Source: a virus. From it: a DNA stretch of 64,000 nt. Below the pieces are notes generated by a model that was given only the letters and a program-made list of their open reading frames with translations, had not been told where the DNA came from and searched no databases. Below are positions 10,281-33,210 of the stretch, in pieces. The stretch is from UHGV virus genome UHGV-1682877; one strand, written 5' to 3'. Position numbers and translations under genes: made by a program. Position 1 is the first letter of the stretch, and each line of letters begins with the position of its first letter.

Positions 10281-10328
10281 TAGGTCGGGGCGGAGACGTG
10301 CGAATAAAAATAGCTTTAACAAATTTTT
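10281..10328 (+). promoter_or_regulatory. conserved GC-rich 45-nt motif, copy A (ggtcggggcggagacgtgcgaataaaaatagctttaacaaatttttt)
   Basis: One of three near-identical copies (with 17754 and 52119) of a GC-rich block in an AT-rich genome. Confidence 0.6.
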
Positions 10329-10350
10329 TAAAGGATAAAGGAGAATAACA

Positions 10351-11127
10351 ATGTTATATAGTTTAAATACAAGACTAAAAAAATTAATGCCAGATGAAAT
10401 CAAATGTCAAATAAATAGATTAGGAGACATTTTTGATTTAATTAAAGAAAATCCAGACATTAGATGTAATATTCAATACACTAATATGGGCGAATTATCT
10501 GAAAAAAAACTGGATGAACAAATTGATTTCATTAAAGAAGTGGCAAAAGATTATACAATAGCTGTAATTAATTTCCAAGATTTGCGGAAATTAAAAGCAA
10601 AAGGCTATAATGTATATTTAGATTTGCCGGTTTCAGATTGGGAAACTTTTAATAATTTAAAAAATATTGGCGTTTCAGATATTTACATTGACGGAGCTTT
10701 AGGATTCCAAATGGAGAAAATTGGAAAAGCAAAAGGAAAAATAAAGATTAGGGTTACTCCGCATATGTCGCCAAATGCGCAATGGTCATCTTCAGATAAT
10801 GAAAATTCTTTTTATATTCGACCAGAAGATATAGATAATTATTCTAAATATGTAGATATTTTAGACTTTAGAGATAACAGCAAAGATGCAGAAGAAACTT
10901 TATTCAATATTTATAAAAGGAAGATTTTTCCTTTTGATTTAAATAATTTAATTAGACAACTGAATTTACCAACTAATAATATTTATATTGCAAATAGTTT
11001 TTGTTCAAACAGATTGAATTGCGGGCAAAGATGTCAGGAGCCTGATATTTCTTGTCATTTATGTAGAAATGCAATTTTAATTTCTAATAAAATGAATGAA
11101 TATATTAGTTTAACGGAAAAAAATTGA
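10351..11127 (+). CDS. hypothetical protein
   Basis: 258-aa ORF; AAAGGAGAA SD; Cys cluster near C-terminus. Confidence 0.6.
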   Translation: MLYSLNTRLKKLMPDEIKCQINRLGDIFDLIKENPDIRCNIQYTNMGELSEKKLDEQIDFIKEVAKDYTIAVINFQDLRKLKAKGYNVYLDLPVSDWETFNNLKNIGVSDIYIDGALGFQMEKIGKAKGKIKIRVTPHMSPNAQWSSSDNENSFYIRPEDIDNYSKYVDILDFRDNSKDAEETLFNIYKRKIFPFDLNNLIRQLNLPTNNIYIANSFCSNRLNCGQRCQEPDISCHLCRNAILISNKMNEYISLTEKN

Positions 11128-11177
11128 TTTTCTTTAAAAAATATAATATAATATTTATATAATAAAAGAAATAATAA

Positions 11178-11214
11178 GTTTTATAAAACTCACCAAAGGT
11201 GAGTTTTATAAAAC
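11178..11214. promoter_or_regulatory. long perfect palindrome (agttttataaaactcacc aaa ggtgagttttataaaac); bidirectional terminator or operator
   Basis: Core is repeated at 37386-37420. Confidence 0.5.
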
Positions 11215-11236
11215 AAATAAGAAAGATGGGGATGAT

Positions 11237-11962
11237 ATGAAACTAAATAATTATGATTATAGATTTTTAAAAAAGTTGTTACAGTCTACACAGCATGAAC
11301 TATTAGAATTTTTACCCAAAGCGCTTAATGCCATTTACCATAAAGAAGATATTATTATTACCAATAATTATATTTGCGCTAAAGGTGATATCCCAGTAGC
11401 TTTAGTTGCTCATTTAGATACCGTATATCCAGAACCACCTAAACAGATTTTTCATGATCCAGAATATAATATTATTTGGGGAACAAATGGTTTGGGTGCA
11501 GATGATAGAGCAGGCGTTTTTGCTATTTTAAATATTTTAGAATGTGGCTATAAGCCTACTGTAATTTTTTGTTGCGATGAAGAAAATGGCGGTTTAGGTG
11601 CTTATCAACTGACTAAAGATTTTTCAAAACCTTTCACCAATTTTGAAATGCTTATTGAGCTAGACCGCCAAGGAACAAAAGATGCAGTATATTATTCATT
11701 AAATAACACTGATTTTGAAAATTATATCAATAATTATGGATTTGAAACTGCGGTAGGTGTATTCACAGATATTTGTATTCTAGGCCCAATTTGGGATGTT
11801 CCCGCAGTTAATCTTTCTGTTGGTTATTTTAATGAACATAGTTATGCGGAAATGCTTTATTACCCAGCTTTATTTGATACTATTGATAAGGTTTGTTTAA
11901 TTTTAGAAGAAAAGAGGACAAAAGACTTTGAATTTACAGAAATCACTGGAAGCAGCAATTAA
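11237..11962 (+). CDS. Zn-dependent peptidase-like protein (M20/M28/M42-type motifs)
   Basis: AHLDTV and GADDRAGV resemble the metal-ligand motifs of co-catalytic zinc aminopeptidases; only 241 aa, so possibly a truncated or non-catalytic homolog. Confidence 0.45.
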   Translation: MKLNNYDYRFLKKLLQSTQHELLEFLPKALNAIYHKEDIIITNNYICAKGDIPVALVAHLDTVYPEPPKQIFHDPEYNIIWGTNGLGADDRAGVFAILNILECGYKPTVIFCCDEENGGLGAYQLTKDFSKPFTNFEMLIELDRQGTKDAVYYSLNNTDFENYINNYGFETAVGVFTDICILGPIWDVPAVNLSVGYFNEHSYAEMLYYPALFDTIDKVCLILEEKRTKDFEFTEITGSSN

Positions 11963-13232
11963 ATATTCTCAAAATTATTCTTTTCCTCTTGATTGTGAAG
12001 AAATAATTACTTCTTGGGAAATTAATAAAGCTAAATTGAACAAAGAATATTTGAACGAAAAAATTACTTTACAATTAACTGATGAACCAGTATCTATTAC
12101 TCTTGATGAAACTTTTAGAAGAGATAGTTTTTTTGAATTTATTGATAAAGTTATGAATTTGTTGGAACCATCTGAAGATGCTCCAGATAGTGAAATAGAA
12201 CTATATTACCATTTTTATGATTTTCTTAGTGATAATGTAAATAATTTTTATTCTAATATTGTTACTTCAGATTTTTTAAATATTGTAAAACGTGGAAGTA
12301 AAATTATTAAATCTTTTAAATATTTTGTTAAAGATAAACAAAAGCTCAGAAAAATCCAGGATATGGCAAGTGAATTAATTCAAACACAAAAAATTTCTGG
12401 ATATTTATTTGCTTCTATTGATCCATTTGAATTTTTAACTTCTAGTGAGAATAATTGCAATTGGCGTTCTTGTCATTCATTAGATGGAGATTATCGTGCG
12501 GGAAATATTAGCTATATGAATGATCAATCTACTATTATTGTATTTTTAGCAAATGAAGAAAAAATCAATGTAGACTGTTTACCAAAATCTATCAAAGTCT
12601 ATAATAAAAAATGGAGAATGTTAATTCATATAAATCAAAATGATAATATAATTTATTATGGAAGGCAATATCCTTCTTATAATAAAAATTTATTAGATTT
12701 AGTTTATAGTAAATTATTTTGTGATAAAGGTTTTATGCCTCCTAAAAAGGTTACTTTTGACCAAATTAATTTAAATCAGGATAATTGTATTGATTTAGAC
12801 CACAATTATATGGCATTAAATAACAAAGTTTTTGATACTTTAGAGTTAATTGATATTCCAGAAAATTCGTTAAATTATAATGATATTGTATATTCTTCAT
12901 TCTACCAAACGCAAGTCAGTATTAATAGAGAATATAAATATTATTATAGTAAAGATAAGCAAAAGACAATAGATTTATTTTTAACTAAAGTTGGTTATCC
13001 TGTTGCTTGCGCTTGCGGATGTGGCAGAAAAGTAAGTAATTCGGCAAGCTTTATTTGTGATACTTGTGCAGAAAAATATAATGCTGAAGGAAATTTATAT
13101 CCAATTTGCTCTTGTTGTGGACAAAGAATAAATTTAAAAGATAAACAGAGTTATAAACAAGAAGAAGAAGGTCTTTATTGTAGTCTTTGTTGGCGAGGAA
13201 TTAAGTCACTTGAACGTCAATTGAATTTTTAA
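11928..13232 (+). CDS. hypothetical protein with C-terminal CxxC clusters (paralog of 8148..9821)
   Basis: 434-aa ORF; TTG start in track; conserved NW(E/R)SC block and KKWR block shared with 8148 ORF. Confidence 0.6.
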   Translation: MNLQKSLEAAIKYSQNYSFPLDCEEIITSWEINKAKLNKEYLNEKITLQLTDEPVSITLDETFRRDSFFEFIDKVMNLLEPSEDAPDSEIELYYHFYDFLSDNVNNFYSNIVTSDFLNIVKRGSKIIKSFKYFVKDKQKLRKIQDMASELIQTQKISGYLFASIDPFEFLTSSENNCNWRSCHSLDGDYRAGNISYMNDQSTIIVFLANEEKINVDCLPKSIKVYNKKWRMLIHINQNDNIIYYGRQYPSYNKNLLDLVYSKLFCDKGFMPPKKVTFDQINLNQDNCIDLDHNYMALNNKVFDTLELIDIPENSLNYNDIVYSSFYQTQVSINREYKYYYSKDKQKTIDLFLTKVGYPVACACGCGRKVSNSASFICDTCAEKYNAEGNLYPICSCCGQRINLKDKQSYKQEEEGLYCSLCWRGIKSLERQLNF

Positions 13233-13262
13233 TAAAAATATATTATAATATATTTAGAAAAT
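13221..13262 (+). promoter_or_regulatory. sigma70-like promoter (-35 TTGAAT, -10 TATAAT 13244-13249) with leader
   Basis: 17-bp spacing. Confidence 0.6.
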
Positions 13263-13279
13263 TAAGAAAGGAATAAAAT

Positions 13280-13738
13280 ATGACTGTAAAAGAGCATGAA
13301 GTAAAAGTTTTTAAATGGCATTATACTTTGGTTAAAAGTTCAGCCATTTTTTATTTAAAAGATTTTATTAATCAAAATGTTTCAGATATTGATTATTATA
13401 TTGCTGATAATAATGAAAGTAATAAAATTATTTTGAATATTAACGGAGTAGAGTATCGTCTTTTAATTAATGATTATCTTCTTTATGACCCTTATTATAA
13501 TACTTTTGTCATATTAGAAAAATCTCCAGAATCTCTTTTTAAAGAATATGAAAAAGATTATGTTATTAAATTTTTAGATAATTATATTGGTAAAAATTTT
13601 CATGATATAAATACTATTTTTAGTTGTGCAAAACATTTTTCTTCTAAAGAAGAAGCTGAAAAAGTAGTAGATTTTTTAGTTGATAATTTTAATAGTAGCA
13701 GAGCTTGTTTTGAAATTATTGACTTAAATGAGGAATAA
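13280..13738 (+). CDS. hypothetical protein (intact paralog of 13741..14036)
   Basis: 152-aa ORF; SD AAGAAAGGA. Confidence 0.6.
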   Translation: MTVKEHEVKVFKWHYTLVKSSAIFYLKDFINQNVSDIDYYIADNNESNKIILNINGVEYRLLINDYLLYDPYYNTFVILEKSPESLFKEYEKDYVIKFLDNYIGKNFHDINTIFSCAKHFSSKEEAEKVVDFLVDNFNSSRACFEIIDLNEE

Positions 13739-13740
13739 TT

Positions 13741-14036
13741 ATGGATAATATTATTGAACGAAAAGTTAAAATATTTTGTTGGCATTTTATTATTGATAAA
13801 AAAATGGCTATTTCTTGTTTAGAAGATTTTTGAATAATATTAATGATATTTCTTTTTATATTTTTACAAGCACTCATAATGATGTTATTCATTTTAAAAT
13901 TAATGAAAAAGAATATGTTCTTTTAATGGGAGATTATTTGGTTTATGATTCTTATTATGAGAATTTTGCTATATTTCATAAACTTCCAAAATATATTCGT
14001 AAAATACAACAAATTGAAAATTTAAAAAATAAATGA
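13741..14036 (+). pseudogene. frameshifted paralog of 13280..13738 (ATG 13741 reads 30 codons to TGA 13831-13833; homology continues in -1 frame as ORF 13815..14036)
   Basis: Both reading frames align with consecutive segments of the upstream paralog; shift lies on a T5 run. Confidence 0.5.
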
Positions 14037-15316: not shown

Positions 15317-15340
15317 TTAGACAGACACAGCAATCTTTAT

Positions 15341-15410
15341 ACAAGTAACGACATGCAGGTTCGATTCCTGTCTTTACGCATCTGTAAAGTAGCCTATTGG
15401 TAAGGTATTT
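15341..15410 (+). ncRNA. tRNA-like element without canonical cloverleaf (T-arm gcaggttcgattcctgt, then closed hairpin ctttac/gtaaag, then D-loop-like tattggtaa)
   Basis: T-arm consensus present but no acceptor or anticodon pairing could be found; same architecture as the element at 26395-26520. Confidence 0.3.
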
Positions 15411-15442
15411 ATTTTGTTTAAAGCTGTCTAGTAAATCTCAAT

Positions 15443-15877: not shown

Positions 15878-15956
15878 TAATGAAAGACACATACAGCAAT
15901 TTATTTAATATTATAAAAAATGGCAGAAAATTTTTATACAAGTGTCTTGTTTATAT

Positions 15957-24792: not shown

Positions 24793-24987
24793 ATGAATAA
24801 GATTATTTTTAAAGCTAAGAATTGGACTATGACTTTTAGAACTAGACAGCAAGCCCTTAATTTTATCCGTAAAAATTCCATTAATCCTTATACTGCCAAT
24901 ATTTTGGTTCTTATTGGTACTCAGGATGTATTTCATTTGGGTTCTCCTCGTGCAGATCAGTATTTTGGACTGAAAAGAAAAAATTGA
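24793..24987 (+). CDS. hypothetical protein
   Basis: 64-aa ORF; AGAGGAGAA SD. Confidence 0.5.
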   Translation: MNKIIFKAKNWTMTFRTRQQALNFIRKNSINPYTANILVLIGTQDVFHLGSPRADQYFGLKRKN

Positions 24988-25025
24988 AAATTTAAAAAAA
25001 ATATGATATAATATTTAAGGAAAGA
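24984..25025 (+). promoter_or_regulatory. promoter of tRNA array 2 (-35 TTGAAA 24984-24989, extended -10 TGATATAAT)
   Basis: 17-bp spacing. Confidence 0.6.
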
Positions 25026-25099
25026 CTTGTACAGCAAATAAAGCTTAAAAGCACTTGACTGGTAATCAAGAAGAAAATGAGTCTTGCTTAAATATTCAT

Positions 25100-25682: not shown

Positions 25683-25745
25683 TAAAGATACTCACAGCAA
25701 TTTATTTTTTATAATGGGTATAAAAAAATAAAGTATCTTGTATTT

Positions 25746-25899: not shown

Positions 25900-26274
25900 T
25901 TAGTCTTATCATACAGACGTAAAATAAATGAGTACCCCAGATAATGCTGAACTGGGTATCCGGGTATCGGGAGAATTAGTCTGGCAACTGTTGAAGCGAC
26001 GATACTGCGTGACCAGGCATAAGGGCGACCTAAGTCGTTAGCTATGGGTAAACAGGTTGATAGCCGCATAGTAAAATGTTTCCTTGCGTCATTAAAATGC
26101 AAGGCGTTATAGGAGAGACGGCGGAGCATTACTCATCTCCACTCCTTCTGCTACGAGAAGTAGAAAATCAAGGCTTCTGAGAAATGCTAATGAGAATGGT
26201 CAACCTCTGATTAAAAAAGGACTAAAGCTAGCTTAGGTTTTAGGTTATCCTCCTTACGAGGGAAAACCTTATTT
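25900..26274 (+). ncRNA. approximately 375-nt GC-enriched non-coding segment between tRNA-Lys and tRNA-Leu(CAA); candidate structured RNA of unknown class
   Basis: No credible + strand ORF; GC content visibly above surroundings; not tmRNA-like and lacks RNase P P4 motifs by eye. Confidence 0.3.
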
Positions 26275-26358
26275 GCCAGAATGTTGGAATTGGTAGACAA
26301 AGAAGTCTCAAAAACTTTCGCTTTATGCGTGCGGGTTCGAATCCCGCTTCTGGTACCA
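26275..26358 (+). tRNA. tRNA-Leu (anticodon CAA), type II; CCA encoded
   Basis: Acceptor gccagaa/ttctggt, D-loop gaattggtaga, anticodon stem gaagt/acttt with loop cTCAAAa, variable arm cgctttatgcgtg, T-arm gcgggttcgaatcccgc. Confidence 0.8.
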
Positions 26359-26394
26359 TTATATTTTTAAATTATTTATAAAGACCTTAACAGC

Positions 26395-26520
26395 AAAGAC
26401 TTGGACAGTAAATCCGTAGCTTAAAGTTGCGCAGGTTCAAATCCTGCCCTCCACACCATATGTGGAGGTAGAGAAGTGGTTAAACTCCGCGGAACCAAAA
26501 ACAAATGGTCTAGGAATTAT
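26395..26520 (+). ncRNA. candidate Y-RNA-like ncRNA with permuted tRNA-like module, immediately upstream of Ro60-like gene
   Basis: T-arm gcaggttcaaatcctgc (26431-26447), closed acceptor-like hairpin cctccaca-cca-tatgtggagg (26448-26468), D-arm-like gaga-agtggttaaa-ctc (26471-26487); terminator-like hairpin at 26522-26541. Confidence 0.35.
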
Positions 26521-26570
26521 TTCTCTCTTGCCTAAGAGAGAAAACTAAAAAACAAAAGGAGAAAGTTATT

Positions 26571-28094
26571 ATGGAAAATAAGATGCTTAATATTTTGAAG
26601 GAAAAGAATACTCATTCTATCACTGAGAACGGCGGTTTGACTTATAATTCTACTATGAATGGAATTATGGATTTGTTTGCTCTTGGTGGTGCTTATCGAA
26701 ATCGCTCAGATGATGATTGTATTTTTCTTTTTAAGAAGGCTTTTGAGGAAGATATTTCTTATGCTTTGAAGTGTCTCTTTTATTTGCGAGACGTACGCGG
26801 TGGACAGGGAGAACGCAGATTTTTTAAGGTCGTAACTTCTTGGTTGGCAGTTAATCACACCGAGGAAATGCGTAGAAATCTGAAGTATGTTCCTGAGTAT
26901 GGTCGCTGGGATGATTTGTATGCTTTTGTTGATACTCCGCTTGAGGCAGATGCTTTTAAGACTATGTATCATCAGCTTGCTCTTGATGTTCAGTGTAAAA
27001 CTCCTTCTCTTTTGGCTAAGTGGTTGAAGTCTGAAAATACTTCTTCTGCAGAATCTCGTATGCTTGGAGCTAAAACCAGAATGGCTTTTAATATGTCTCC
27101 TAAGCAGTATCGCAAGATTCTCTCTATTCTTCGTGAAAGAATTAGAGTTTTGGAAAGACTGATGAGTGAAAACCGTTGGGATGAAATTGAATTTGATAAG
27201 ATTCCTTCTAAGGCAGGTCTAAAGTATCGCAATGCTTTTGCAAAGCACGATATTGAAAGAGAAAAGTCTAATAAGGTAACTTATGAAGAGTTTGTAAAGG
27301 ATTCTAATACTAAGGTCAATGCTGATACTTTGAATCCCGCAGATGTAGTTCATGCTGTTGTTTCTAAATTTCCCTATTATAGAGGAAATTTTAATGGAAC
27401 TGATGTGGAGAGAGCTGCACTCAATAAGTATTGGGATAATCTAAAGGATTATTTTAATAATGCTGTTTTTGACGGTGTTGCTGTCGTTGATACTTCTGGT
27501 TCTATGTGTGGTTTTTATGGTAGTGAGAAAACTATTGCACCTATTGATGTAGCTATTTCTCTTGGTATGTATTGTGCTGAGAAGTGTAATCCCAATTCTC
27601 CCTGGTATGGACATTATATTACTTTTTCCCGAACTGCAAGATTGGTACCTGTTGAAGGTATTGATTTTGTTGATAAGGTGCGTAGAATTTATCAAAAGAA
27701 TCTTTGTGAGAATACCAACATTAAAAGTATTTTTGATTTGCTATTGAGCAATGCTATTAAATATAATATTCCTAATGAAGAAATGCCTAAAAACATTGTA
27801 ATCATTAGTGATATGGAATTTGATTATTGCGCTGGTTACTATAATAGTGATGAATACAAGTCTGAAATGGAAAAGATTATGCAAGTTTGGAACTCTCATG
27901 GTTACACTACTCCACATTTGATTTTCTGGAATGTTGACGCTCGAAATGATAATATTCCCATGAAGATGAAGGATGGTATTACTTTTATTTCTGGTTATTC
28001 TGCGGTAACTTATGAAATGTTGATGACTGGTAAAACTGGTTTTGATTTGGTTTTGGAAAAGTTGAACAATAAGAGATATGAGGTAATCAAGTAA
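26571..28094 (+). CDS. vWA-domain protein with Ro60/Rsr-like (TROVE + vWA) architecture
   Basis: 507 aa; MIDAS-type VVDTSGSM about 300 aa from N-terminus; N-terminal ENGGLTY ... LGGAYR resembles TROVE start; AAAAGGAGAA SD. Confidence 0.5.
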   Translation: MENKMLNILKEKNTHSITENGGLTYNSTMNGIMDLFALGGAYRNRSDDDCIFLFKKAFEEDISYALKCLFYLRDVRGGQGERRFFKVVTSWLAVNHTEEMRRNLKYVPEYGRWDDLYAFVDTPLEADAFKTMYHQLALDVQCKTPSLLAKWLKSENTSSAESRMLGAKTRMAFNMSPKQYRKILSILRERIRVLERLMSENRWDEIEFDKIPSKAGLKYRNAFAKHDIEREKSNKVTYEEFVKDSNTKVNADTLNPADVVHAVVSKFPYYRGNFNGTDVERAALNKYWDNLKDYFNNAVFDGVAVVDTSGSMCGFYGSEKTIAPIDVAISLGMYCAEKCNPNSPWYGHYITFSRTARLVPVEGIDFVDKVRRIYQKNLCENTNIKSIFDLLLSNAIKYNIPNEEMPKNIVIISDMEFDYCAGYYNSDEYKSEMEKIMQVWNSHGYTTPHLIFWNVDARNDNIPMKMKDGITFISGYSAVTYEMLMTGKTGFDLVLEKLNNKRYEVIK

Positions 28095-28105
28095 ATAGTA
28101 TTTTA

Positions 28106-28134
28106 AGAGAGGTAAAATTACCTCTCTTTTTTTA
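28106..28134 (+). terminator. rho-independent terminator (agagaggta / tacctctct + T-run)
   Basis: Read directly. Confidence 0.7.
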
Positions 28135-29585: not shown

Positions 29586-29604
29586 ATAAAGGAGTTTGAT
29601 ATTT

Positions 29605-30873
29605 ATGGCATACTATGGTTTAGTAACTAAAATTGAAAATGTAAGAAAAGACCCTAATTCTGATAGACTCTATTTGGCTGATTGTTTTAGAGAAGGAGTT
29701 ATTGTAGGCCCTAATATGAAGGAAAGCGAGTTGGTTCTTTATCTTCCTACTGATGGAGCTATTGAGCGTTGGTTTGGTGATGAGTTTAAACTTTTCCGCA
29801 AGAATTTAGATGGTACCGCGCAAGGTGGTTATTTGGAAAATAATGCTCATATTAGAGCAATTAAGCTAAGAGGTAATGAATCTTCTGGTATTGTTATTTC
29901 TTATTCTACTATTGTTGAGCATTTTGGTGAGCAAAATTGGAAAGATGGCGATCAGGTCACTGAAATTAATAATAAGCTATTTTGTTATAAATATATTCCT
30001 AAACCTTCGGCTATTCCTCGCACTACTCCTAAAACTTCTTATAAAGGTCGTAAAGCAGCTGGAATTAAGTATCCTGATTTTGCCATGCATATTGATACTG
30101 CCCAATTAGCTTACAATCTTGGAATTTTTAGACCTGGAGATAAAATTAATCTAACCCTTAAAATGCATGGAACTAGCCAGCGTAGTGCATATACTTGGGC
30201 AGAATATCCTATGTCTTGGTTTAGAAAGCTATTTCACATGAAACCTAAGAGAAAGTTGCAGTATGTTTTAGGTACTCGTAGAACTGTTGTTACTACTGAT
30301 GGGGTAGGTTATTATGGTAATGACAAATTTAGATTTAGTCACCATGAAGCTTTAAAACCTTATCTCGATGAAGGTATGGAAGTTTTTTATGAAGTAGTTG
30401 GTTGGTATGGAGCAAAAGAAAATGAAACTATTATGCCAATTGTAGATAATAGTAAAATTAATGACAAGAAATTTATGAAAAAGTTTGGTAAGTATACTAC
30501 TTTTTCTTATGGTTGTACTCCTGGTCATTCTGCAATGTGGATTTATAGAATTACTTCTCATAATGGTGAATATGAATATTCTCCAGAGGAAATTACTACT
30601 TGGTGTAATGAATATGGTTTTAATCGTGTTCCTATTATTGAGGATTTTGAATTTACTACTGTTGATGACTTGCTCGCTAAAATTGACAAATATTTTGAAG
30701 ATATTGTTGACCCAGTTGGTTTAACTCATGTTAAAGAAGGTGTAGTAGTTAGAATTGCTAATAGACGTACTTTTACTGCATTAAAACAAAAAACCTGGGA
30801 GTTTAAAGTCCTTGAAGGTCTAGTTAAAGATACTGAAACCCAGCCCGATATGGAAGAAGCACAGGAGGTTTAA
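29605..30873 (+). CDS. ATP-dependent RNA ligase-like protein (Rnl2/Rnl5-type KxHGT motif) with N-terminal extra domain
   Basis: KMHGTS resembles nucleotidyltransferase motif I of T4 Rnl2 (KIHGTN); N-terminal region has OB/tRNA-binding-like motif IKLRGNESSGIV; ATG 29605 after AAAGGAG. Confidence 0.5.
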   Translation: MAYYGLVTKIENVRKDPNSDRLYLADCFREGVIVGPNMKESELVLYLPTDGAIERWFGDEFKLFRKNLDGTAQGGYLENNAHIRAIKLRGNESSGIVISYSTIVEHFGEQNWKDGDQVTEINNKLFCYKYIPKPSAIPRTTPKTSYKGRKAAGIKYPDFAMHIDTAQLAYNLGIFRPGDKINLTLKMHGTSQRSAYTWAEYPMSWFRKLFHMKPKRKLQYVLGTRRTVVTTDGVGYYGNDKFRFSHHEALKPYLDEGMEVFYEVVGWYGAKENETIMPIVDNSKINDKKFMKKFGKYTTFSYGCTPGHSAMWIYRITSHNGEYEYSPEEITTWCNEYGFNRVPIIEDFEFTTVDDLLAKIDKYFEDIVDPVGLTHVKEGVVVRIANRRTFTALKQKTWEFKVLEGLVKDTETQPDMEEAQEV

Positions 30874-30875
30874 AT

Positions 30876-31325
30876 ATGACTTTAGAAATTATGCACAATG
30901 ACATGATGCAGGCTTTGAAGAATGGTGATACTCAAAAGAAGAATGTACTTTCCAATATGATTGGTGAAGTACAAAAAGCAGCAATTACGCCAAAAGGCAG
31001 AATTGAAATTACCGAAGAGCTTGTTAATAATACTTTAATCAAGTATCAAAAGATGATTCAAGAAATGATTGATACTTGTCCAGAAAACCGCAAAGAGTTA
31101 TTTATTCAATATAATCTTGATATGGCTGTTGTAAAGCAGTATGCACCACAACTTCTCACTGACAAAAAAGCAATTAAAACTCAAATTGAAAAGATGCTTG
31201 CAGAAAATGAGCTTGATGCAATTAAGGCAAATAAAGGTAGAGCAATGAAACTTTTTGCTCCTGTTTTTAAGGGTAAGGCAGATATGAAAATTGTTAATCA
31301 AATTGTGTCGGAGGTAATGACCTAA
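30876..31325 (+). CDS. GatB/YqeY-domain protein
   Basis: N-terminus and length typical of YqeY-like proteins; CAGGAGG SD. Confidence 0.45.
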   Translation: MTLEIMHNDMMQALKNGDTQKKNVLSNMIGEVQKAAITPKGRIEITEELVNNTLIKYQKMIQEMIDTCPENRKELFIQYNLDMAVVKQYAPQLLTDKKAIKTQIEKMLAENELDAIKANKGRAMKLFAPVFKGKADMKIVNQIVSEVMT

Positions 31326-31725: not shown

Positions 31726-31770
31726 ATTAAGGGCAAAGATTAAGATCTTTTGCCCTTAATTTATTTTTTT
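31726..31770 (+). terminator. rho-independent terminator (ttaagggcaaaagat / atcttttgcccttaa + T-run)
   Basis: Read directly. Confidence 0.7.
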
Positions 31771-31805
31771 AAAAATTTATATTATAATATATATAGAAAG
31801 TTAAG
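31762..31805 (+). promoter_or_regulatory. sigma70-like promoter (-10 TATAAT 31783-31788) with leader
   Basis: Family consensus. Confidence 0.55.
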
Positions 31806-31821
31806 AAAGGAATTGATATTT

Positions 31822-32535
31822 ATGAATAAGAGTAAAGTTTATTGTTTTACTGACCTTCATGGCAATTCAAATTTGTTTAAGCAGATTAAAAATTTCATTC
31901 AAGCAGAAGATAAAGTGTTCGTGCTGGGTGATGTAATTGACAGAGGGACAGAAGGTTGGAAAATACTTAAAGAAATTTTAAAAGATGAAAGATTTACTCT
32001 TCTTAAAGGAAATCATGAACAAATGTTAGTAGATTCTGGAAGAGAATTTTTAAAAAATGAAAGATGTCTATATGGAGATGATATTTATCGTCACATGAAT
32101 AATGGAGGTTTATCTACTTTACTAGACTGGTCTAAAGAAAAAAATGCTATTGAGTATTTAAATTTAATTAATAAACTTCCAGTTTATGAACAATACACTA
32201 ATAAAAATGGAATTAAAATTCATTTAAGTCATGCAGGTTTTTCTCCTAATAATATTTCTGGTGATGAATTTGATTTTCTTTGGAATAGATTACATTATAA
32301 ATTTAGATGTTTAATTAATCCAAATGAATTAATTATTCATGGCCATACCCCAATTCCTCTAATGATAGAAGATATAGGAGAATTTCGCAATCCTCCCAAA
32401 TATGAAGGTGGAGCTTGTTGGTATAATAATAATCAAAAGGTTAATCTTGATTTAGGTACTCATTGGAGTAAGCAAATTATCCTTTTTGATTTAGATACTT
32501 TTGATGAACATATCTTTTCTGCTCAAGGAGAATAA
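31822..32535 (+). CDS. calcineurin-like metallophosphoesterase
   Basis: TDLHGN, GDVIDRG and GNHE motifs; internal ATG of track ORF 31750..32535 follows AAGAAAGGA SD. Confidence 0.7.
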   Translation: MNKSKVYCFTDLHGNSNLFKQIKNFIQAEDKVFVLGDVIDRGTEGWKILKEILKDERFTLLKGNHEQMLVDSGREFLKNERCLYGDDIYRHMNNGGLSTLLDWSKEKNAIEYLNLINKLPVYEQYTNKNGIKIHLSHAGFSPNNISGDEFDFLWNRLHYKFRCLINPNELIIHGHTPIPLMIEDIGEFRNPPKYEGGACWYNNNQKVNLDLGTHWSKQIILFDLDTFDEHIFSAQGE

Positions 32536-32942: not shown

Positions 32943-33210
32943 AGACCCTAGAAAATATGAAATGCATGATTTTTATTGTATGAATTGCGGAAAGAAGTCA
33001 ATGTCAATTCCTCGATTAAGAGGACGTTTTAGAGAAGTTGGGCATAAGAAAGTTATGTATTGCCCTCATTGTAAAGAAACTGTTAATATGGTAGAATGTA
33101 GAAATGATGAAGAAGCGTATAATTTTAAACTAGATTTTGAAGAAGGACTTTTTAAAGAAGAAGCACAAAATAGTATTTCTTATGTAAAGGAGTTTGGTAT
33201 TTATGATTAA
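32917..33210 (+). CDS. hypothetical zinc-ribbon protein
   Basis: CMNCG ... CPHC. Confidence 0.5.
   Translation: MRSLIKMSKDPRKYEMHDFYCMNCGKKSMSIPRLRGRFREVGHKKVMYCPHCKETVNMVECRNDEEAYNFKLDFEEGLFKEEAQNSISYVKEFGIYD

Follow-up and report, generated by a model that had tools for sequence, protein, structure and literature searches.

Ro60 and its Y RNAs form a classic RNA-protein particle. Here we describe a phage locus that is reminiscent of it, in which a gene for a Ro60-like protein is preceded by a 133-nucleotide (nt) RNA element that ends 58 nt ahead of its start codon and carries a circularly permuted tRNA-Tyr-like module. Both lie in a 64,000-nt stretch of the UHGV virus genome UHGV-1682877, which we refer to as the window and in which all listed features are on the + strand. 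Among the Y RNAs, the closest counterpart is YrlA of bacteria and mycobacteriophages, which is defined by a GNCGAAN0-1G motif, by the order variable arm, T arm, acceptor stem, D arm, and by an rsr gene nearby on the same strand (Chen et al. 2014, PMC4201824). A fourth feature applies where the acceptor stem has 7 bp, as in the YrlA of Mycobacterium smegmatis: RNase P cuts the RNA into two base-paired halves, and CCA is added. YrlA and YrlB may also stand in tandem upstream of rsr, and a T arm to D arm succession can be simulated by tandem tRNAs (PMC4201824).

Ro60-like proteins have also been noted in phages. The protein gp130 of Bas63 (JohannRWettstein), encoded beside tRNA genes, was reported to be Ro60-like in structure and to counter the Ppl defence (PhageMaP preprint, PMC11482910). 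The same preprint speculated that there are Y RNAs among the Bas63 'tRNA genes' and identified none. LeBron gp53, annotated as 'Ro-like', is toxic when overexpressed (PMC13148394). The paper on the phiLo Ro60 makes no mention of YrlA, tRNA-like RNAs, vWA or DUF2828, and in the literature searched on DUF2828, Ro-like phage proteins and phage tRNA-like RNAs we found no description of the RNAs presented here. For comparison with the window, 80 viral loci (L001-L080) were selected solely by relatives of the protein, and 120 further loci solely by an RNA pattern, namely TAACAGCAA, a gap and then the T loop.

The RNA element spans positions 26381-26513. Its closing stem begins with the 5' strand AAGACCU (26381-26387), which pairs with 26506-26512 and forms five of its seven pairs in the window copy. 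This is followed by the conserved single-stranded motif UAACAGCAA (26388-26396), a candidate protein-binding site, and by the spacer AGA. Next come an anticodon-arm-like hairpin CUUGGA-CAGUAAA-UCCGUAG (26400-26419), in which GUA is the Tyr anticodon, a region that reads like a long variable arm (26420-26430), a T arm GCAGG-UUCAAAU-CCUGC (26431-26447) and an acceptor stem that is closed on itself, CCUCCAC-A-CCA-UAU-GUGGAGG (26448-26468). The latter has 7 bp, equivalents of G1:C72 and A73 and an encoded CCA. It is followed by UA, equivalent to U8/A9, and a D arm GAG-AAGUGGUUAAA-CUC (26471-26487). Between the D arm and the 3' strand of the closing stem lies C-GCGGA-ACCAAAAACAAA, which comprises an alternative stem strand (GCGGA, 26489-26493) and a spacer, and the unit ends with the 3' strand UGGUCUA and an invariant G (26506-26513). 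Position 33 of the anticodon-like loop is A in the window copy and U in its relatives. The element is a nearly complete bacterial-type tRNA-Tyr, with its ends joined and its chain opened near the anticodon stem.

Much of this anatomy had been recognised in a previous, sequence-only reading of the region. The T arm is perfect, as it had stated, and the D-arm-like hairpin with a GG loop is present (GAG-aagtGGttaaa-CTC), as is the self-closed acceptor-like helix cctccaca/tgtggagg (26448-26455 and 26461-26468), which is better read as 7-bp CCTCCAC/GTGGAGG with the loop A-CCA-UAU. Its view that the order of the arms is unfit for a normal cloverleaf agrees with our analysis, as the arms are permuted and neither ARAGORN nor the Rfam tRNA model calls the element. 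The one correction concerns the start, which had been placed at 26395 and has to be moved 14 nt further 5', to 26381; the element ends at 26513. The same reading had proposed a comparison with the Rfam YrlA and tRNA models. Neither of them (RF00005 for tRNA) matches the window element, even at E<=10, and Rfam assigns no family to it or to the scaffold in 15 related loci. Rfam holds no model for this scaffold and the family is uncatalogued.

When the window RNA is folded alone, its closing stem, T arm and acceptor hairpin all form, and its minimum free energy (z -3.7) was not matched by any of 200 shuffles. The strand UCCGU (26413-26417) has two candidate partners, the local UUGGA and the GCGGA 3' of the D arm. 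The distal pairing is 5/5 in every Tyr-type copy and is retained through compensatory changes in L064 (UCCAC/GUGGA) and L152 (UCCGG/CUGGA; sequences read by eye). In these copies, the local anticodon-hairpin pairing is mismatched. The distal pairing would close the tRNA-like module with a YrlA-type 'anticodon stem' and give exactly the YrlA topology.

The RNAs related to the element form a structured and conserved family. In alignment A3, which comprises 35 diverse long units and specifies four helices, 95.1% of the pair cells are canonical, compared with 62.6% in shuffles and 36-41% when the partners are slid. Two-sided changes affect 255 cells vs 67 in shuffles, and the covariation score of 0.873 (0.234 in shuffles) was not reached in any of 500 shuffles. 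Four of the four helices covary. The closing helix is 96% paired and covaries in 7/7 pairs, and helix 2 (the T stem) is 100% paired with covariation in 4/5 pairs. Helix 3 (the acceptor stem) is 93% paired and covaries in 7/7 pairs, while helix 4 (the D arm) is 91% paired; neither of these two was a selection criterion. The sequence CAGCAA is invariant in A3 and stays unchanged in phages of Firmicutes, Proteobacteria and Actinobacteria, across hosts from three bacterial phyla and a wide range of GC content. Many of the long units in A3 have no CCA or recognisable anticodon arm.

A covariance model of the long units, R1, finds the window element with 74.1 bits. Outside its training set, R1 matches units in L068, L071, L077, L078, L080 and L034 at 58-78 bits, a second unit in phage PBC2 at 92 bits and a unit in Lolly9 at 78.8 bits. 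For the training-free relatives that score 68-79 bits, E-values range from 1e-11 to 1e-14.

The family shares one design, in which a 7-bp closing stem is followed by 2 nt, (N)CAGCAA and a variable cargo, and then by an A-rich spacer, the 3' strand and finally a G. This scaffold recurs in hundreds of units. Its cargo may be a permuted tRNA-like module or a tRNA-like body in normal order; units of 55-75 nt carry a small hairpin instead. A Tyr-type permuted unit is found upstream of the gene in L077, L078 and L080, and homologous units occur in L068 and L071. L046-48 and L053 have other tRNA-like versions, and L069 and L070 have short ones. Among the short units, 68 of 181 contain a hairpin with a 7-nt loop, U33 and R37, compared with 23.5 for shuffled cargo. 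Most frequent among the loops are CUUUUAA (Lys), CUGUUAA (Asn) and CUGGUAA (Thr). Early stem scans were too lenient (840 vs 820 in shuffles, then 490 vs about 210) and were replaced by a strict definition of stem plus motif, for which the shuffle null is 4-9. A DNA search of cultured phages with the locus returned tRNA-sized matches only.

Two observations concern individual members of the family. In PBC2 (L201, 4308-4431), one unit encloses a whole annotated tRNA-Ile gene in normal order, which suggests that the cargo can be a complete tRNA. In L187, a full-length RAGATH-33 (2793-2904, - strand, 135 bits) lies among scaffold units, and its 5' end GCUAACGGCAG resembles the CUAACAGCAA motif. 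RAGATH-33 was rejected as the identity of the scaffold and is a different, neighbouring RNA.

The scaffold RNAs are linked to genes of the DUF2828 family, to which the window protein belongs. In the 80 protein-selected loci, 123 strict units lie on the gene strand vs 9 on the opposite strand, with NCAGCAA sites equally frequent on both. Of these loci, 56 have at least one unit, and 118 units are located upstream of the gene and five downstream. The R1 matches with E<=0.01 are on the gene strand without exception (90/90). When the loci were selected by RNA instead, 51 of the 120 were found to contain a DUF2828 gene and none a TROVE gene (searched with the TROVE hidden Markov model), the loci being short with a median of about 9 kb. 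The proteins found in this way are 32-58% identical to that of the window, two marginal matches aside, and 142 units are on the gene strand vs 9 on the opposite strand, at a median of 360 nt upstream. Several more RNA loci are on contigs that were already known to carry the gene elsewhere.

The same linkage is seen in cultured phages. Units flank the gene in every cultured phage that was inspected closely, namely Bacillus phage PBC2, Listeria phage P100, E. coli phage Bas63, mycobacteriophage Lolly9 and Campylobacter phage Los1, the proteins of which are 28-40% identical to that of the window, and also in gut phages. Bas63 has four scaffold units in its tRNA array, and Vibrio phage VH7D a doubtful mini-unit only. 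In the 50-kb tRNA-gene region of phage T5 (L206), we found no DUF2828 match, no scaffold units and no R1 match. The T5 record (AY543070) lists seven small stable RNAs, some of them tRNA-like, in L206 at 10285-13950, and an eighth, RNAX, at 20849-21567. Like the scaffold RNAs, the T5 RNAs are small, interspersed with phage tRNA genes and in part tRNA-like. Unlike these, they have neither the ACAGCAA scaffold nor an R1 match, and there is no DUF2828 gene in their region.

The protein gene of the window (26571-28094) is the 507-aa open reading frame of the sequence-only reading, and the motifs TENGGLTY, ALGGAYR and AVVDTSGSM (residues 304-312) are all found as claimed. Pfam assigns residues 149-290 to DUF2828 and residues 302-492 to DUF7788, and finds no match to TROVE (PF05731) or vWA_Ro60 (PF25045) in the protein. 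As a positive control we used gp220 of phage Bxz1 together with the YrlA upstream of its gene; gp220 matches TROVE at 9e-50 and vWA_Ro60 at 4e-54. The window protein matches PHROG 850, annotated as 'RNA-binding protein', at 1.6e-112. Its mycobacteriophage homologs are annotated as 'Ro-like', and some phage records use 'Ro-like RNA-binding protein' for the family. Searched against PDB sequences, neither the protein nor its profile returned anything relevant, the sole match being a chance segment of Nup93. The comparison with a TROVE profile, which had also been proposed, was carried out by hhalign with an alignment built around Bxz1 gp220. It aligned 34 columns around the metal-ion-dependent adhesion site (MIDAS) only, with a probability of 9.7% and an E-value of 0.003, both profiles being shallow (effective number of sequences about 2).

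At the level of predicted structure, the protein resembles Ro60 more than it does any other fold. An AlphaFold2 model built from 25 homologs shows a Ro60-like fold, with the helical-repeat N-terminal domain followed by a vWA domain that is characteristic of Ro60 architecture. When this model was used in a Foldseek search, the top ten matches were all Ro60/TROVE structures, aligned over the full length with E-values of 4e-8 to 2e-4, and Ro60 structures ranked above all plain vWA proteins. The MIDAS residues D307, T308, S309, S311, T382 and D414 are invariant in the 25 homologs. The protein is Ro60-like in its predicted fold and architecture and, by Pfam, is not a TROVE sequence member. The earlier designation 'Ro60/Rsr-like' thus holds for fold, architecture and MIDAS and fails for membership in the TROVE sequence family, as judged from Pfam. 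As modelled, the gene product is a distant, fold-level relative of Ro60, which belongs to the DUF2828/DUF7788 family and is placed outside the TROVE sequence family. By tblastn, the protein was found in 704 cultured phages. DUF2828 proteins have also been reported in plant studies (potato, poplar, wheat), and the Ro60-like family therefore extends to eukaryotes.

How closely does this locus follow the Ro60/YrlA system? As in YrlA and its consensus structure line in Rfam, an outer stem of the element encloses a variable arm, a T arm, a closed acceptor stem and a D arm, in this order. It has a 7-bp acceptor stem, as the M. smegmatis YrlA does, and occurs in tandem with simpler RNAs, comparable to YrlA and YrlB. 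It lies on the strand of its gene and within 4 kb of it, the partner being DUF2828 rather than TROVE. The protein combines helical repeats and a vWA/MIDAS domain in a Ro60-like predicted fold, and RNA-repair genes are close by. In contrast, the protein belongs to DUF2828/DUF7788 and not to TROVE/vWA_Ro60, the profiles sharing the MIDAS segment alone, and UAACAGCAA takes the place of GNCGAAN0-1G. The scaffold cargo is far more varied than that of YrlA and includes bare anticodon-loop mimics. Many scaffold units are present per genome, embedded in tRNA arrays, and CCA is encoded in the acceptor loop. Bas63 gp130 is a member of the same family with DUF2828 and DUF7788; the Ppl counter-defence phenotype has been reported for gp130.

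The Rfam model of YrlA, RF02553, recognises part of this likeness. Its positions 23-89, which correspond to the tRNA-like core, match the Lolly9 unit with 37.7 bits (E 7.5e-7). The control, the Bxz1 YrlA beside a true TROVE gene, scores 32.5 bits with RF02553 and is matched by R1 at 29 bits. All RF02553 matches are below the gathering score of 69 bits, and the outer Ro60-binding stem of the model was never matched. Because the Bxz1 YrlA itself reaches 32.5 bits, RF02553 is narrow even for true phage YrlAs.

By analogy with these systems, we consider it probable that the scaffold is the binding site of the protein and that RNA and protein form a Y-RNA-type particle. The sequence-only reading is therefore supported in its cautious form, 'Ro60-like' protein plus 'candidate Y RNA'. 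The latter term fits the YrlA module order, the covariation and the same-strand linkage to the gene, with the qualification that the Rfam YrlA model does not match and the motif differs.

Several points weigh against this interpretation. No TROVE homology is seen at the sequence level in Pfam or PDB searches, and the profile-profile comparison aligns the MIDAS segment only. The confidence of the structural model is moderate (predicted local distance difference test score 74, predicted template modelling score 0.62), and the template modelling scores of the matches are modest (0.34-0.47). The sequences in A3 were pre-filtered for the closing stem and the T stem, so that support from these two helices is partly circular; this does not apply to the acceptor stem and the D arm. 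About one third only of the short units contain a clear anticodon-loop mimic. The near-identical phage L001 lacks the unit, which means that this copy is dispensable. Finally, all DUF2828 phages examined carry tRNA arrays, and T5 is the single DUF2828-free control. The units could thus be tied to tRNA arrays rather than to the protein.

This last point leads to an alternative explanation, in which the units serve tRNA operons as punctuation or in processing (RNase entry sites, stabilisers or sites for another factor), and are close to the gene only because DUF2828 genes tend to lie beside tRNA arrays. In line with this, units occur among the tRNAs and directly adjoin them, and some surround an entire tRNA in normal order, as in PBC2. 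Others share a contig with the gene at a distance of tens of kb (L100 vs L025). We nevertheless regard this explanation as unlikely. An unpaired 7-nt motif is invariant across hosts of three phyla with large GC differences, and the modular cargo resembles the design of Y RNAs. Moreover, the units of P100, Los1 and Lolly9 directly adjoin the gene, either between gene and array or with no array nearby, whereas the 24-tRNA array of T5 has no units.

Circularly permuted tRNA genes, as known from Cyanidioschyzon merolae, and the two-piece permuted transfer-messenger RNA (tmRNA) give rise to functional products via dedicated processing. In both, as in the window element, the 3' part is encoded upstream of the 5' part and the two are joined through the acceptor ends. 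The element could be a functional, circularly permuted two-piece tRNA-Tyr gene, whose acceptor hairpin would be opened by RNase P and 3' trimming to leave a tRNA that can be charged and whose pieces the scaffold stem holds together. The 7-bp acceptor stem, G1:C72, A73, CCA, GUA, the long variable arm and the normal T and D loops would all suit such a gene, and tRNA-Tyr is missing among the 17 ordinary tRNAs that ARAGORN finds in the window. The cutting by RNase P and the adding of CCA in the M. smegmatis YrlA (PMC4201824) also speak for it. Unlike in the permuted tRNA and tmRNA genes, however, the module here is embedded in a foreign scaffold that is conserved, and non-tRNA cargo is found in similar scaffolds. 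Position 33 is A in the window copy (CAGUAAA), an extra helix interrupts the 26/27 or 31/32 junction, and many long units lack CCA or a recognisable anticodon arm. Together with the absence of the unit from L001, this renders a working tRNA-Tyr gene decidedly improbable.

The comparison with L001, whose protein is 98% identical, also bears on the nature of the unit as a piece of DNA. Here, positions 26362-26518 are absent as a clean 157-nt indel, while the hairpin in the 5' untranslated region (UTR) and the ribosome-binding site are kept. This marks the unit as a discrete module that is dispensable and does not belong to the mRNA leader. Such clean presence or absence between closely related phages, many copies per genome and terminal inverted repeats would be features of a small non-autonomous mobile element akin to miniature inverted-repeat transposable elements, with the closing stem as inverted repeat and the indel as insertion polymorphism. 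The chance that this explains the units is slim. The ends of the indel differ from those of the unit and no target-site duplication is evident. Furthermore, stems differ among copies in one genome and change through compensatory substitutions, the cargo differs as well, and the strand bias of 123 vs 9 follows the direction of transcription.

That the element is a decaying, functionless remnant of a tandem tRNA-Tyr duplication beside an unrelated vWA protein is very unlikely and the least probable of these alternatives: the duplicated 5' strand of the anticodon stem (UUGGA 26401-26405, GCGGA 26489-26493) is what a truncated head-to-tail duplication would leave, and tandem tRNAs can imitate the arm order (PMC4201824), but phages with proteins of only 52-58% identity maintain the permuted unit through compensatory changes, all helices covary, the family scaffold frames the element and Foldseek places Ro60 structures before all plain vWA proteins.

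The 133-nt element is one of at least eight units in the window, which extends the 'candidate Y RNA' of the sequence-only reading, where the others had gone unnoticed. At least seven further units, all identified by the strict scan, lie inside the two tRNA arrays of the window. In the array next to the protein gene, a short unit (25022-25086; R1 31.4 bits, E 2e-4) reads AAGACUU / GU-ACAGCAA / CUUGA-CUGGUAA-UCAAG / GAGUCUU-G and presents an anticodon-loop mimic with GGU. A second short unit, AAGAUAC...GUAUCUU-G (25685-25740; R1 33.5 bits, E 7.5e-5), is found between tRNA-Gly and tRNA-Thr. The other array contains a second long unit with T arm, closed acceptor stem and D arm (15318-15431; R1 78.7 bits), a short unit (15884-15949; R1 35.3 bits) and a unit at 16848-16962 (R1 33.3 bits). 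The latter encloses a 'tRNA-???' with a 4-base anticodon called by ARAGORN (16876-16948), which is probably scaffold cargo and not a frameshift-suppressor tRNA. Two candidate units follow, one with a long AT-rich insert and a weak R1 match (17241-17402) and one with the motif variant UCCAGCAA (17437-17579).

The array that leads to the protein gene is headed by a promoter-like site (24984-25012) with TTGAAA, a 17-nt spacer and TG-TATAAT. It has 11/12 consensus matches and an extended -10, making it promoter-like and strong by consensus match alone, and the first scaffold unit begins about 10 nt downstream. From there, the order is unit 25022-25086, tRNAs, unit 25685-25740, tRNAs, tRNA-Leu(CAA) (26275-26358; ARAGORN and Rfam), which is the last ordinary tRNA 5' of the element, and the 133-nt unit itself. 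On the 3' side of the latter follow a 5'-UTR hairpin UCUCUCUU-GCCU-AAGAGAGA (26522-26541), the ribosome-binding site AAAGGAG (26555-26561), the coding sequence and an intrinsic-terminator-like hairpin with a T run at the operon end (28105-28128).

The 5'-UTR hairpin represents a second recurring feature of these loci. Just 5' of the ribosome-binding site, DUF2828 loci have a small hairpin whose CUUG-YCC-AAG core is conserved and whose stems vary, and in 70 of 77 DUF2828 loci among L001-L080 a hairpin with the CUUG...AAG core lies no more than 80 nt from the start codon. The 5' half of the hairpin is similar to the 3' end of scaffold units (...GUCUUG), and the hairpin may be a site of autoregulation or of processing. 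Within the array, a non-coding stretch of 375 nt separates tRNA-Lys and tRNA-Leu (25900-26274). Its GC content is 43%, compared with 30% in the window, Rfam finds nothing in it and it folds with ordinary energy (z -0.6). Where it was aligned with L001, the 3' portion (from about 26134) is conserved. Just 5' of the tRNA array, a gene at 22630-23889 codes for a radical SAM / 4Fe-4S protein, which may be a nucleoside-modification enzyme.

Downstream of the operon, the window contains a set of RNA-repair-type genes, and similar sets are present in Listeria phage P100. The RNA ligase and the kinase/phosphatase pair that had been noted near the protein gene are confirmed: an RNA ligase (PF09414, 29596-30873), a calcineurin-like metallophosphoesterase (31750-32535), a P-loop kinase (AAA_33, 33194-33706), which is a candidate polynucleotide kinase, and adjacent to it a second metallophosphoesterase (33709-34251). 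A YqeY/GatB-like protein (30876-31325) and a PIN-PhoH protein (34915-36186) are also encoded here. The pair of RNA ligase and YqeY/GatB-like protein recurs 3' of the Ro60-like gene in the window (29596-31325) and in P100 (L202, 8777-12561), where the region also includes an RtcB-type 'tRNA splicing ligase'.

We propose the following working model. The element would be transcribed as a small RNA within the tRNA array and would consist of a constant scaffold (the 7-bp closing stem, the unpaired 5' UAACAGCAA, the A-rich 3' spacer and the terminal G) and a variable cargo, in the window an almost complete tRNA-Tyr with circularly permuted parts. The scaffold would dock the Ro60-like protein, as Y RNAs and YrlA in particular do with Ro60. 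Given the 7-bp acceptor helix with its encoded ACCA and the precedent of the M. smegmatis YrlA, RNase P is likely to cleave the RNA into two base-paired halves, with the cut likely to fall at G26462. The cargo would then do the work: by imitating a tRNA or an anticodon loop, it would bring enzymes which recognise tRNA to the particle or divert them. Host anticodon nucleases are candidate targets, as is the repair set of ligase, kinase and phosphatase of the phage itself. We put this function of the cargo forward tentatively; it would fit the adjacent repair genes and the phenotype of gp130.

A wider proposal, which we regard as possible and still somewhat doubtful, is that DUF2828 proteins and ACAGCAA-scaffold RNAs constitute a second, phage-borne Ro60/Y-RNA-like particle system with interchangeable decoy or adaptor cargo. 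The particles would present either entire tRNA bodies or specific anticodon loops, of which CUUUUAA (Lys) and CUGUUAA (Asn) are the most frequent mimics and GUA (Tyr) belongs to long units. As decoys or adaptors, these would work against host defences that target tRNAs or for the tRNA repair enzymes of the phage. If true, such a system would explain how a member of the family, Bas63 gp130, counters a bacterial defence.

Taken together, the locus is a variation on the Ro60/Y RNA theme that is widespread in phages, with another protein sequence family, another, putative docking motif and a much wider range of cargo. With the scaffold, odd 'tRNA-like' calls within the tRNA arrays of phages find an explanation, and an RNA family missing from Rfam becomes available. 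The units turn the guess of the Bas63 preprint about Y RNAs into specific candidates. For the Ro60-like family as a whole, which is present in at least 704 sequenced phages, candidate RNA partners with an exact conserved motif are now at hand, and among its members are phages that can be worked with in the laboratory, namely the Felix O1-like Bas63, Listeria phage P100, Bacillus phage PBC2 and the mycobacteriophages of cluster L.

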